Shown: in pieces, positions 6,589 to 22,556 of the stretch | Layout of the letters: each line of letters begins with the position of its first letter | How positions within the stretch are numbered: the stretch's first letter is position 1 | DNA from: Octopus vulgaris | Taxonomy: Eukaryota | Direction of reading: 5' to 3' | NCBI GenBank assembly: GCA_951406725.2 | Contig: OX597819.1 | Coordinates: 99,076,001-99,140,000, forward strand | DNA length: 64,000 nucleotides | Notes under the pieces: model-generated | The model's database searches: none | Told to the model about the DNA's origin: nothing | The model's input: only the letters and a program-made list of their open reading frames with translations | Translations under genes and position numbers: made by a program

Positions 6589-7563
6589 CTGAAGTTGTCT
6601 GGATATATGTATGTATGTATGTGTGTGTGTGTATACGTATGTATGTGTAGAGACCTCTTTTGGCTCCACCTGAGTTTTGAAACTGAATGGGTAAATTTCC
6701 CCCTAACTTTTGAGCCTTATTGTTCTGTTGAGGAACAATGTTGTTTTATTCAACCGATGGCCTTCCCAACATTTGATTGATGTATTTTCCTCTTGACCCA
6801 TAACCCTTCTAATTTGTAAAGGGTTTAAATAAATAATATAAGGGATCTTTACCCTTTCAACGGCAGATCGAGAAATATATTTTTTGTAACTAAACACTTT
6901 CAACCTTCGGACACTAACCCTAACCCTAATGTGTCATATAAAACATATTTTACTTTTAATGTTACTCTTGACCGCGGCCATGCTGGAGCATCACCTTTAA
7001 TCGAGCAACTCGACCCCGGGACTTATTCTTTTTGTAAGCCCAGTACTTATTCTATCCTTAACCAATCATATTTTCTGTTTTCATTTGAAATTATTAGCTG
7101 CATAGTGTTAATGTGACGTAGATAGCTATTTTGTGAGTGGGTAAGCAGTAATCTGTGGTAGATGTGGTTATCATGGCAGTGGTGGTGGTGGTGACAGTGG
7201 ATGTGTATGATGGCAGCAATTATAGTGTTGGTGTTTTTGTAGAGGTGGTGGTGGTGGTGGTGGCGGCAGTGGATGATGATGATAATGATGATGATAGTAG
7301 TAGTAGCATTAATTATGTTAGGATGTCTCATGGATGGTAGTGTTGGTGTGTGTGTGTGTGTGTATGTATGGATCAAAACAGTTTGATCCAAATTCTGTGG
7401 TACTTATATATTCATACATACATATACATGTAGATGTATATAACATATATATATATTGTATGTAAACATCTTTTATATATATATATAATGTATGCATCTA
7501 TAATACTCACACATTATAAATATATACACATATATGCATATGCATTAGAATATGTGTGTATAG

Positions 7564-7624
<61 letters not shown>

Positions 7625-8265
7625 TATGTTTGTATACATGTGTGTGTAGCTATTTAGGATCTACACAAATTTTATATATACTCCACGAAGTTTATGATAA
7701 GCGGAGATGTTTACATTTTAGTTAGCTATTTACATGTTTACGTTAACTACGTCACAAAATAGCTGTTTACGTCACAGTAACAATATTTTGAGAAGCAGTA
7801 AATAATATGAGGCCGAAAGAAAGAATATCATTGGTTAAAATTCGAATTTTTAAACAACGTTAAACTTAGAAATTACAATTCCGTTTTCATTTTGGTTTAC
7901 AATTGTGTTTTCTTTTGACACATTCTACCAGTATACGAAGTTTCAAATTGTTTAGTTAACTAGGAAAATCTGGCCTTCAAAAAGAAATGATCCCGAAATT
8001 GAAAGCACTTGTGTTTTAATCATACACTCACACACACAAACATACACACACACACACACCACACACATGCACTCACACATACACACAGACGTGCACATAC
8101 ATACACTCTTATTACGCACATCTACACGATCATTCACACGCATTCACTATTAAATACATTAATTCGAGCATAAGCGGGCATTCACATGAACACGCATATA
8201 CCCAAAGGCACGCACACATTCACGTACACATACACACACACATGCACACACACACACACACACAC

Positions 8266-8332
<67 letters not shown>

Positions 8333-8968
8333 AAGTGACAGTAAAATCAACATTGATTCATTTCATTGGTGTCATCATATGAAAATTCTCTGAGACTAAT
8401 TTCCGCTTGCCATATTATATGAATATAATTGGTCAAACCTGTCGTTAGACAATAACAAGAAGCAGGAATGGCTGCATTTGGAGGACAGATATAGAAGGTA
8501 TGGGGTTGGTAATTGTTTGTTACAAGAAAACTTTGTAGGTTTTCTCTCAGAAATGGCAAATTTGAATTACTTTTCTCGGTATTGAAAACCGATCCAGGTG
8601 GAAATTAATTTTTATTTCTTTATGTTATCAACAACGACTTCTTCAGATATTGTTGTATATGATGATAAACGTGAGAAACGTTGACTTTAGATGTATAGTT
8701 TTGCAGCAAATATTTCTGTATTTCAACTGTCAAATGTAAATCTGCTCAGGTGTTTATGAAGTTGAAGGACCTTCAATGTTGCAGTTGTTGTTGTTGTTGC
8801 TAACGTTATTGCTACTTCTGTTAGTGTTGTTGTGATGTAGGCGTTTAGCTGTACACCACCACTGATCTGGAAGACTTATGGACAAAAATGTTCCGACCCA
8901 AATATCTAAGACTATTACGCAGTGTCCTTAATCTTTTAAATGGTAGGCTAGAAAGAAGATTCTAACGA

Positions 8969-9026
<58 letters not shown>

Positions 9027-9098
9027 CATATATATATATAAACGCATATATATATATAAACATATATATATATATAAACACACATATATATATATATA

Positions 9099-9144
<46 letters not shown>

Positions 9145-9228
9145 CATATGTATATATATATATATGTATATATATATGTATATACATATGTATGTATATA
9201 TATATATATATATATATACATATGTATG

Positions 9229-9512
<284 letters not shown>

Positions 9513-9524
9513 TATCTATATATA

Positions 9525-10280
9525 TGCCCTATCAGTATTTGTGAAGGGAAGTCATCCTTCCCGTCTTCAACTCATGATACACACGGACTCGAATTTCAAG
9601 GTATTGACCTATCATCGGCGTGTGACAATCATAGTTGTCGACGAGAAGTCAGCTCTCTTCACAAATACATATACTTTTTCCAGTATCGATTGACACTGAT
9701 ATTGAAAAAGTGAAATCAAACAATGATAAATCTCAGAGCGAGTTATAAACAGTAGCGACAACACGTGACGTATATTTGCCATTTGAATATGGCTAACCCC
9801 TAAGGGTGGATGCTACTGTAGTTTGTAGCCCCAGGAAGACACCTCCATAGGGCTTAGCCATATTCAAATGGCAAATATACGTTATGATGTGTTGCCGCTA
9901 CTGTTTATAACTCGCTCTGAGATTTATCATTGTTTGATTTCACTTTTTCAATATCAGTGTCAATCGATACTGGAAAAAGTATATGTATTTGTGAAGGGAG
10001 CTGACTTCTCGTCGACAACTATGATTGTCACACGCCGATGATAGGTCAATACCTTGAAACTCGAGTCCGTGTGTATCATGAGTTGAAGACGGGAAGGATG
10101 ACTTCCCTTCACAAATACTGATAGGGCACAGAAAATGTGTCTACAGCCAGCTGGAGGAGGTGTCTTCCTGGGTCTACAAACTACAGTAGCATCCACCCTT
10201 AGGGGTTAGCCATATTCAAATGGCAAATATACGTCACGACGTGTTGCCGCTACTGTTTATAACTCGCTCTGAGATTTATC

Positions 10281-10283
<3 letters not shown>
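9525..10283. mobile_element. Penelope-like/retrozyme-like unit: inverted plus partial tandem copies of a 352-bp monomer
   Basis: Arms 9525-9802 and 9848-10128 are reverse complements; the + strand monomer restarts at 10200 (period 352); duplicated at about 17450-18207. Confidence 0.7.
10029..10073 (+). ncRNA. Minimal type I hammerhead ribozyme candidate (U4C core)
   Basis: CACACG-CCGATGA-T-AGGT(CAAT)ACCT-T-GAAAC(TCGA)GTC-CGTGTG; stem I extends with bulges to 9985/10118. Confidence 0.6.
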
Positions 10284-10345
<62 letters not shown>

Positions 10346-10632
10346 GATACTCTCTCATTTGATTCCCAGTCCTAATAATTTTTGTGATATTGTCTGCTGT
10401 CGTGCCTTTGCTGCTAAATGTCCTTTTACAGTAGCATATTTTGGCATTCTTTTGGTTGAATCCGCAGAAATGCCAAAATGAACAACTGGTTTTGTTTGAT
10501 AATTTCTGTAAAAAAACTGTTATTTATTTACTTTTGTTTTAAAGTGAAAGAGAGGAGAAAGTGAAGGATGTACGTACGTACGTGTATCTGAAATGGACGT
10601 GTGTGTGAGTAAGTGAGAGAGGGAGAGAGAGT

Positions 10633-10673
<41 letters not shown>

Positions 10674-10857
10674 GGGTGTATTGTCATGTATACTTACATA
10701 CATAAATAAATATGCATACAACTTTTGGTATGTATGTGTGCATGTGTGTGTGAGAGAGAGAGAGGGGGAGAGAGAGAGTGAGTACTACTTAGACATCACT
10801 CTTTCTTTCTCTCTCTGTCTCTCACACACATACGTACACATACAAAAAGATGAGTGC

Positions 10858-10888
<31 letters not shown>

Positions 10889-12557
10889 TGTATTTATGTA
10901 TGCATGTATGTATTCATGACAACACACCCCTTCACTCACTCTCTGACTCTCTCTCTCACGCTCTCTCACCCCTCCACACACACACACACATAAATGTTTA
11001 CAAACGCACATACAAAAACACACGTGTGCGTGTGTAACTGACAGCAAATACATAGAGCTGAAAACGGCGCGCAAAAAGTAAACGAATAAAAAAATTTTAC
11101 GGAAATTAACGAAGTGTGTAGGTTCAAGCGAAAGAATGACCATATTTTTTTGTATACCTCATGTTGAATTGCAAAATTTTAATGTGGTATTTGTGTAATA
11201 AAGAAATCAAACCTGAAGCGTGTGTGTATGTGTTTATATTACAGAAACAGTGTGTGTGTGTATAAGAGAGAGAGAGAGAGACAGACAGAGAGAGACAGGC
11301 AGACAGAGAGGAAGGGAACATGGCAAACAATGAATGAAATAAACATGAAATGAAAAAATCGTATAAATAAAAGCTCGTTAAAAACAGTCTTGTACTGAAT
11401 ATTTAAATTTGTGAACTCGAAATATTTAATAAAAAAAAGGAAGTTTCAGAAAGTAAATTTTCTTGAAAACTTTAATTTATAAAAAATCTCACTTGCTTAG
11501 TAAATATTTCTTTCAATAATTTATCGTAGTTGTTTGCAAATAGCGGATTAAAACTTGAAATGTAAACATTGAAGTAGAGAGTGAGAGGTTTCGCAAATAA
11601 AAACGAAAAGTTTCGCCTGCAACGGTTGCTACGTTAACACCGGAAGATGACATTGAAAATCCTTGAAAGAAGTAAATCATATATATAAAACAATATTATT
11701 TATTTTTAATGAAAAAATGAAATGAAACCCTATTATGTATCCAAGATCAAATTATTCATGCACCCCAGCCGTTTTCGTGTGAAAAGCGAATACACACACA
11801 GAGGTTTTATATATATATATATATATATACATACACACATGCATTTATGCATACATATATGTATATATGTGAGTGTGTGTCTGTACTTACAATAACGCAC
11901 ACATAGGGAGGGACAAGACATGTTAAAAGGAAGTTAAAGAAACCTGAAAGGGTGAAGATGTAAATGTAAAGAAGAAGGAAAAGAAAGCGGAGAGGAAATA
12001 AAAGAAAATATGGAACTTATGAGGGTCTTTCACAACTCTCCATGATAGATACCATTCAGGCGTCCAGTGTAACATTTGGGCGAGTGTCATTTTCTATAGT
12101 CACGGATCAACCCATTCCTTGCAAGTGAAATCGTGAAAACTGAGTTGATAGAATTTGTTTTTGAAGCTCTTTGGAGGGATTGTACTTGTAATTCAAAGGA
12201 ACACACTTGTCCACACGGTATCATACTGATCTTGCTTGAGAATTACGGGAAGGGCACACGAGTTTGTGGAATGCTCAGTTGCTTACACGCTAATTTTAAG
12301 AGCTGTTAATTCAGTTTCTTTTAGTTGATCGAATAGCAATTGAATCCTCATAGTCAAAACCAAAGTTGAAAGGAGTGAAATTAACGGAAGACAGCAGAGT
12401 TTCACATCCTCGTGGTTAAAAAAAATGTTAGGGGATGTTAAGTTAATCGATTTCAGGAGTGGCATTTATTTTATCGACTTCGAAAGAGTGAAATGCAAAG
12501 TCGACCTCGGCTGAATTTCGACTTAGAAAGTAAAAACAGACGAAATGCCGTTAAACG

Positions 12558-12793
12558 TTTCTTATTTCTTTATTTCCCACAAAGGGCTAAACACAGAGAG
12601 GACAAACAAGGACAGACAAACGGATTAAGTCGATTATATCGACACCAGTGCGTAATTGGTACTTATTTGATCGACCTCGAAAGGATGAAAGGCAAAGTCG
12701 ACCTCGGCGGAATTTGAACTCAGAACGTAACGGCAGACGAAATACGGCTACGCATTTCGCCCGGCGTGCTAACGCTTCTGCCACCCTGCCGCC
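12558..12793 (-). mobile_element. tRNA-derived SINE, family B (Meta-domain-like)
   Basis: Reverse complement has a tRNA-like head plus gtcgactttgcctttcatcctttcgaggtcgat...agtacc; duplicate at 20467-20702. Confidence 0.8.
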
Positions 12794-13467
12794 TTAATTA
12801 TGGTGGTAGTTATAATAACGCGTAAGATAATGTTGAAAATGATGATGACAGTGATGGTGGTTGCGATGTAATAATGACAATAAAATAGAATGACGACAAA
12901 GACGACGACAATGATTATGAAAGCGATAGTGGTAGCGGCGACGACAACCACGACTATGATGAGGATTACTATTTTTATGAAAAAGAGGTAGAAACAGAAG
13001 AGGAGGGTACTATTGATGACTACGTATCTAAACATGAAATTGAGGATGAAAAGAAAACCTAATTTGAATTTCATGTACCTATTTTGCTGTTTCCGAATGT
13101 CTTTGGAATGAAACGGAAGTTGACACTTATTCGACATGGTTTCTACCTAACCTGACTTCCGGTATTCTCCACAAATGGCCGAAATAATTTGGTAAAATTA
13201 GAATATTTGTGCAGTCTTACACCACTATATTCGTCACTTATAATGACGTCTGCAACAACAACATCAATAACAAATATAACAACATAGAAGACGATAGAAG
13301 CACTTTACAAATGTAGAAACGTAAAGAAGTATATTATGTGTGTGTGGGTGCATGCGCGTATACTACGAACACACACGTGTACACATATGCACACACACTT
13401 ACACACATCCACACGCATTTGCGCACATACGCACACATTTGCGCACATACACACACACTCATATCCA

Positions 13468-13525
<58 letters not shown>

Positions 13526-13612
13526 CCTTCGTATGTGTGTGCATGTATGTATTTGTATATATGCATGTGTGTATGTTTGTCTGTATATATGTGTGTATGT
13601 CTTTATATATGA

Positions 13613-13650
<38 letters not shown>

Positions 13651-13811
13651 ACGTGTGTGTACGTGTGTGTGTAAATAGATGTGTGTTTGTCTATATATAT
13701 GTACATGTGTGTGTGTATGTGTGTATGCATGTATATATGCATGTATGTATATATGTACAGAGCATTATGAGGAAGTATAAAATAAAAATAATACCGACAA
13801 CCAAATTTAGC

Positions 13812-13843
<32 letters not shown>

Positions 13844-13892
13844 CGGACACAAAGGCTGAAAGATAAAATACACATTTAAATAATGATGACAA

Positions 13893-13961
<69 letters not shown>

Positions 13962-14586
13962 AAATGATGATGATGATGATGATGATAACCAAGTCCAAAA
14001 GAAATGAGTTTGAGCGTGTTGATCACGTCATGCCTTGTAAAAGAAAATAAACAAGAGACGACAGATTTGGGAAAAAGCTTTTGATTCGGAGATTGTATGA
14101 AATAAAAGACGTTTTACATGACAACAGAGAAAAATTTCGTTTGAGATTTCCAGTGATAAACATTGTTATTAAATCAAGGTGGAAGTTGTGTTATGTGGTC
14201 TGTTTATAGTGTCTGGCCCACGACTCACCACAACATCAAAGAGATTTTATAAGAAGTTTTCAGCTTGATTTACTCATAAAATTGTATTTATGAGCTAGTG
14301 TCATATTGGATTATAATTTTCGTTTTCGAATAGAAATCAAAATGACAGGTTTTTTTATTGCACTCACATGCAAACTAGTGCAGAACTGTGCAAAGTATTG
14401 CAGAATTATTAATGTATACGGTATTGTGTGATAAATGGCGTGGAATCTTTTTCTCTTTACATGGAACAGTCATTAGACTGTGGCCATGCTGGGGCACCGC
14501 CTTGAAGAATATTTAGTCGAATCAATTAACCACAGTAGTTATTATTTTTTTTTGTTAAGCCTGGTACTTATTTTATCGGTCTGTTT

Positions 14587-14686: not shown

Positions 14687-22556
<7,870 letters not shown>

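Follow-up and report, generated by a model that had tools for sequence, protein, structure and literature searches.

Background

What is the repeat that lies, at once tandem and inverted, at positions 9525..10283 of a 64,000-nucleotide window of the Octopus vulgaris genome (the whole stretch analysed; positions without another label are those of the window), and why does the hammerhead motif within it have an irregular core? We suggest, with a probability of roughly 0.8, that a non-LTR retrozyme has inserted here as two inverted arms, and that a Penelope-like reverse transcriptase/endonuclease acting in trans likely copied it into a (TA)n tract. Judged by its sequence, the locus appears to be a retrozyme insertion of an ordinary kind whose variant core is heritable. 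More interesting is its family, in which the core variants form a dated series and the insertion ends pair by a near-strict rule.

The inserted element

The original prediction described palindrome arms of ~280 bp and a head-to-tail restart after 352 bp. Both observations are confirmed: 9525-9805 matches 9845-10128 at 274 of 284 positions, and 10197-10283 repeats the preceding unit with 82 of 87 positions identical at a period of 352. The 3' ends of the two arms face outward and their 5' ends meet at 9845/9846. The minus arm (9525..9846, 322 bp) is 5'-truncated, and its 3' end lies off both of the sites where family members usually end. The plus arm (9845..10283, 439 bp) consists of a single 352-bp unit (9845..10196) followed by the first 87 bp of another; it terminates at site B (~10283). 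Between site B and the other usual end, site A (~10239), lies a "tail" (10240..10283). We infer that A and B are start sites of reverse transcription. The right flank is a (TA)n target tract (10283..10345); a short (TA)n tract also stands on the left (9517..9525).

The plus arm amounts to 1.25 units and there is one ribozyme per strand, so the locus by itself can form no dimer in cis and release no circle. The expectation of a dimer or a ~352-nt circle thus fails for this particular locus. With one ribozyme on each strand and a long fold-back, it is unlikely to lead to circles.

A second copy of the element (17452..18207) is 99.7% identical to the first. It sits in a tandem duplicate of 7.9 kb (6750-14586 and 14687-22556, 98.5% identical), whose two members are separated by a gap of 100 N. 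Since this near-identical duplicate abuts the gap, it is likely an assembly duplicate, that is, an uncollapsed haplotype, and we treat the second copy accordingly.

The ribozyme and its fold

The plus-arm hammerhead (10029..10073) is of type I. Stem I is formed by 10029-34/10068-73, the core occupies 10035-41 with C at position 4 (10036), and stem II has 4 bp; the predicted cut falls after C10067. Rfam Hammerhead_1 (RF00163) aligns exactly there, but with 17.8 bits (E=0.071, gathering 34) in a search of 181 bases. It is absent from the Rfam matches of a 3-kb search around the locus, where the miRNA matches are below gathering and reflect repeats. The minus arm carries a hammerhead at 9580..9624, with C4 at 9617 and a C15.2>U change. 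As predicted, the core reads CCGATGA in both arms (10035-10067 on the plus and 9618-9586 on the minus strand). A T-T mismatch closing stem II had also been noted; it is present in the plus-arm hammerhead as U10.1·U11.1 (10042/10055), and such closure has precedents, as U10.1·U11.1 occurs in nature (PMC3088659). The subfamily of this copy thus does not have the canonical core, U4 with G10.1-C11.1; it has C4 and U·U instead.

The hammerhead had been called minimal, which we would not retain. Its stems of 6 bp (I), 4 bp (II) and 2 bp (III) are those of canonical type I geometry. In minimal hammerheads of Penelope-like elements helix III is absent, helix II has 7-8 bp and helix I has 4-5 bp, and a geometry with a short stem III is treated as canonical (Cervera & de la Pena 2014, PMC4209133). 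The enclosing interrupted stem of ~50 bp holds up better: in the predicted fold of 9985..10118 (plus strand) all four of the segments originally listed are paired. The stretch 9980-10125 folds at -61.9 kcal/mol (z=-7.75), and none of 200 shuffled sequences folds equally well.

Stem and loop III contain a self-complementary 8-mer (10059..10066, plus strand), for which an 8-bp dimer helix of -10.7 kcal/mol is predicted. As a monomer, the RNA is predicted to reach a lower energy in another fold: the hammerhead lies 5.3 kcal/mol above the minimum for this copy and 6.1 kcal/mol above it for a canonical sister. Dimer formation through the 8-mer may be the route to the hammerhead fold.

Conservation of the stems was assessed in 51 copies, chosen from 105 candidate rows to span the subfamilies. 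Stem I is 96% paired; in stem II, G-C is found in 31 copies and A-U in 16. The third pair of stem III, which exists only in a dimer, is U-A in 33, U·G in 16, C-G in 2 and broken in none, in a region partly constrained by the sampling patterns. The palindromic loop III is maintained under change. An additional tally of palindromes (145/151) was set aside because the regular expression behind it favoured palindromes. The covariation check that had been proposed gave a divided answer for the structure as a whole. Double-change cells numbered 42 vs 18.7 and beat all 500 shuffles; the count of pairs showing double change, 6 vs 6.1 in the shuffles (335/500), does not. A control structure slid by +1 gave 37 double-change cells against the 42 of the true structure. 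Whole-structure covariation is weak.

The family

A first look at the 2.8-Gb genome gave 2,298 candidates for the 352-bp unit. Patterns for the core gave 650 and 532 genome matches, and a 23-mer just 3' of the cut gave 963; the reversed controls gave 0 throughout. The family comprises about 1,000 hammerhead-bearing units genome-wide. Some units stand head to tail in arrays, 2-9 at a time with a period of 352-353 bp, and consecutive units carry the ribozyme. The nine-unit array (L141:3400-6544) has C4 in all nine and is a possible source of multimeric transcripts. Contigs from sequencing runs that we guess to be RNA cover the unit and its canonical form; they show neither strand, ends nor circles.

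Non-LTR retrozymes are characterized as non-coding units of 150-450 bp and low GC, with type I hammerheads, that occur as head-to-tail repeats (PMC7229834; bioRxiv 10.64898/2026.07.22.740005). By sequence the present family would belong with them. The unit has 352 bp, 42% GC and no Met-to-stop frame around the circle longer than 57 aa, its hammerhead is of type I by the Rfam alignment and the pairing of stem I, and ribozymes recur along the arrays. The closest likeness is to axolotl Rtz_353/HHR_Amex2 and the mussel repeats of 350-390 bp, which are likewise non-coding, have type I hammerheads and GC below 50% and measure ~350 bp. Metazoan non-LTR retrozymes also share the 2-bp stem III with a tetraloop, the U·U at the base of stem II, tandem copies and strong self-pairing (PMC7229834). 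The axolotl retrozyme of 350 bp, whose ribozyme has the U·U, cleaves to 22% as a monomer and better as a dimer (PMC7229834). Unlike these elements, the octopus family has U4C fixed in three subfamilies, and it consists mostly of dispersed insertions of one to two units with inverted arms.

The core variant

Is C4 simply a mutation of this copy? When positions 4-7 were left free, 88 genome matches were obtained, namely 51 CCGA, 35 CTGA and 2 CCAA (hand count). Almost all of the CTGA copies sampled fall into a subfamily of their own, set apart from the C copies by 29 linked diagnostic sites. In the subfamily of this copy, C stands in 12/12 exact matches among the matches listed (the first 100 of 650). 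Because the T copies differ at linked sites and the subfamily is uniformly C, U4C is not a product of decay. We rejected the idea of a single mutated copy, and also the idea that CpG decay after insertion had divided the copies into C and T; CCAA, which would be its mirror change, is found in 2/88 matches and in 5 of the first 100 listed. U4C is therefore an inherited state of the subfamily, as the original prediction had it.

The prediction that canonical searches would miss the family does not hold. Its youngest and commonest subfamily is fully canonical, and only the C4 subfamilies would escape; searches requiring CUGA overlook several hundred copies. Among the first 100 listed of the 532 matches to the canonical pattern, U4 is present in 100/100 and G10.1-C11.1 in 93/100. 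The canonical sister subfamily reaches 32.2 bits (E=1e-6) with Hammerhead_1, and relatives at ~80% identity carry U4.

The subfamilies can be ordered in age by the median divergence of copies from their own majority sequence. The oldest by this measure is an old U4 group (9.4%, n=6). A C·A group, mostly C4 and sampled by the C4 pattern, stands at 4.7% (n=21), two U4/U·U groups at 4.2% (n=6) and 1.5% (n=13), C4/C·U at 3.1% (n=11), the subfamily of this copy at 2.3% (n=43) and the canonical subfamily at 0.8% (n=21). A tree of copies was built with FastTree. A tree of eight subfamily majority sequences, with position 4 excluded and 11 unassigned rows dropped, places the young U4 subfamilies within the C4 ones (bootstrap 76-100), and monophyly of C4 is rejected (AU test, P=0.0006). 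The simplest reading of this subfamily tree would be a single gain of U4C, its spread to three subfamilies and two or more reversions. The subfamily sequences have mosaic columns, and recombination could mimic this pattern of gain and reversion. For the other core bases 0.64 changes are expected on the C4 branches, so their conservation has no power.

Same-strand multimers occur in 7/16 canonical vs 3/57 insertions (P=6e-4), and by hand count in 18/53 canonical vs 2/48 loci (P=1e-4); this excess is confounded by age and by the bias of exact matching. In U4/U·U copies such multimers are also few (1/12), so that position 4 alone is insufficient to explain the excess.

U4C and U10.1·U11.1 have each been found separately among natural hammerheads, with reduced or retained activity (Perreault 2011, PMC3088659). 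In the octopus family, unlike in those variants, the two stand together and have been amplified to hundreds of genomic copies. Our literature search found no cephalopod retrozyme, no retrozyme with U4C and no twin-priming account for Penelope elements, although Lunse et al. 2017, Ambros & Flores 1998 or the supplement of PMC7229834 may list cases of U4C or of cephalopods.

How copies are inserted

Our tally, over loci L001-L186 without nine array loci that overlap, comprises 140 distinct insertions; the loci were found through ribozyme patterns, which biases arm length. Two arms are present in 77 of the 140, with 3' ends outward in all 77. The 3' ends cluster at sites A and B, ~45 nt apart. 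At one or both ends (TA)4 is found in 105/140, against a background of 6-8% per 35-bp stretch. Fourteen of the 77 two-arm insertions, including the one at 9525..10283, have an end off both sites. In the 63 scorable cases, with both ends at these sites, the pairing is A/B in 60, A/A in 3 and B/B in 0 (P=4e-15), which fits twin priming. At the junctions of the 60 A/B insertions the 5' breakpoints of the two arms are 14-173 nt apart in 53, and 27 overlap by 1-7 nt.

Two fixed 3' ends, variable 5' truncation, an inverted arm and a microsatellite target are the marks of Penelope-type mobilisation. Together with the arrays and the non-coding 352-bp unit they bear out the idea of a retrozyme-type element linked to Penelope. 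Penelope-like elements with an endonuclease have, downstream of the ribozyme, two 3' ends separated by 40-50 nt; they also show a tail at one end, head-to-head inversion, (TA)n targets and no ends at the cut site (Arkhipova 2013, PMC3846280; Craig 2021, PMC8557442; Frangieh 2024, PMC11167929). The octopus unit differs from them in lacking an ORF and in having a ribozyme of canonical rather than minimal geometry. In qualitative terms, a one-ended tail and an inverted copy were already known for Penelope elements (PMC8557442, PMC3846280); here the tail follows a near-strict rule, which turns a long-noted feature into a testable model of twin priming. With purified anole Penelope protein, both strands are cut and then extended, the two start sites on the RNA lying at either end of the tail (PMC11167929).

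No 5' end lies at the predicted cut in the first 100 listed of the 963 matches to the 23-mer. Foreign DNA stands just upstream in 4/100 of them, each retaining 3-8 nt of the ribozyme; the pattern loses about one quarter of foreign flanks. As none of the 100 begins at the cut, the templates would be uncut multimers or circles. In 6 of 30 old-family loci (L161, L164, L166, L167, L169 and L181) the 5' truncation coincides with the start of the GAAA box that immediately follows stem II, which may mark a pause of the reverse transcriptase.

The following mechanism may be suggested. A multi-unit or circular RNA would serve as the template. A helper protein would cut both target strands and prime a cDNA at each of the two sites, A and B, and joining of the two 5'-truncated cDNAs would create the palindrome. 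The ribozyme would cut only as a dimer held by the palindromic loop III. Its U4C/U·U form would be weak yet tolerated, spreading from mostly uncut multimers, and the fully canonical form would produce circles better.

Alternative explanations

It is quite possible, if somewhat short of an even chance, that the C4 ribozyme is effectively dead. The C4 subfamilies would then be passengers from read-through multimers and the returns to U4 would be neutral CpG transitions or the result of recombination with U4 templates. C4-G5 is indeed a CpG, so that C>T is the easiest change, the subfamily sequences look mosaic, and the listed 5' ends avoid the cut. Ribozyme mutants of anole Penelope leave insertion in vitro unreduced (PMC11167929), and 8/9 Xenopus retrozyme dimers showed no cleavage (bioRxiv 10.64898/2026.07.22.740005). 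Yet the youngest subfamily also gained G10.1-C11.1, two changes at the sole non-canonical pair (rough chance 0.002), and it is the one richer in same-strand multimers. Found in the literature searched only for a viroid, U4C considerably reduces activity in vitro (PMC3088659, citing Ambros & Flores 1998), but the viroid variant retained enough of it in vivo (PMC3088659). A bolder version of our own reading treats the family as a natural experiment. A crippled U4C ribozyme would have spread through hundreds of insertions, and selection would then have restored U4 and G10.1-C11.1, boosting circles, rolling-circle multimers and copy number; the A/B pairing would reflect a Penelope dimer that primes each target strand at a separate RNA start site. 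We offer this tentatively and would expect it to fail in some part. If true, the spread of U4C would mean that cleavage is unnecessary for mobility.

The inverted arm could also come from self-priming, by fold-back of the first cDNA or by priming on antisense RNA, as suggested for rotifer Penelope elements (PMC3846280). Symmetry within 5 nt at 7/60 junctions, and arms more alike within than between insertions in most subfamilies, agree with this. Fold-back of a cDNA started at B, however, demands that the A arm always be shorter, and it is the longer in 33/60; two separately templated cDNAs fit better. Self-priming is unlikely, though the argument from arm length does not reach the version with an antisense template. 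We consider it most improbable that the copies are truncated pLTRs of an autonomous Penelope element rather than a separate non-autonomous retrozyme. Insertion architecture is the same in autonomous elements, and one copy has ORF sequence directly upstream. Nevertheless, arms continue into the previous 352-bp unit and not into an ORF, arrays reach nine units, and in tblastn searches with two pieces of Penelope ORF 4 of the searched loci matched, only 1 of them with a direct join. The ORF of an autonomous Penelope-like element (RT and GIY-YIG) is absent from the unit, and tblastn was empty in the window.

For the retrozyme reading, the broader question is why Penelope elements and retrozymes retain hammerheads. 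Their role in Penelope elements is called unclear (PMC8557442), and the ribozyme is dispensable in the one in vitro Penelope system (PMC11167929). Sister subfamilies in the octopus family are 80-95% alike and are distinguished at defined positions of the core; their relative age, copy number and multimer frequency are known. Such a series allows cleavage rate to be compared directly with genomic success, and so would show whether the ribozyme makes a difference to transposition.

Helper and neighbouring repeats

A helper sharing the sequence of the unit was not found; the Penelope-type family that we tested has an unrelated end (30 loci). As a candidate place for a helper, the interval between two old-family matches 3.3 kb apart was rejected, as it contains no ORF. 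The tested family (L189:4190-6909, frameshifted, and L191-L220) is abundant, encodes RT, a zinc-finger linker and GIY-YIG (PF01541), and terminates in (TA)n at two sites ~50 nt apart. A canonical hammerhead was not found in its end. In one of the 140 insertions, L188:2535-3457 (minus strand), ~620 bp of Penelope-type ORF run straight into an old copy of the retrozyme at its 5' end, and the continuation of the ORF is missing on the other side. This chimera looks like a template switch to the mRNA of a helper.

An old, unrelated hammerhead family (L221-L234, 14 matches) shares only the palindromic stem III with the unit, and a linked ORF was not found for it. With this stem common to both, ribozyme dimers across families are conceivable.

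Another repeat family directly adjoins the element (9345-9515, motif 9463-9438 on the minus strand) and recurs at 17388, 50109, 50394 and 57498. Its motif resembles a minimal hammerhead with a 4-bp stem II and no loop of stem III. U replaces A at position 6 in 20/20, and position 7 is free (A3, C4, G4, T9). The motif is likely a hammerhead core changed by A6U, within the terminal repeat of a Penelope element. Finally, yet another repeat has inserted as a palindrome at L189:3607-4135, and the middle of this insertion resembles a hammerhead core.
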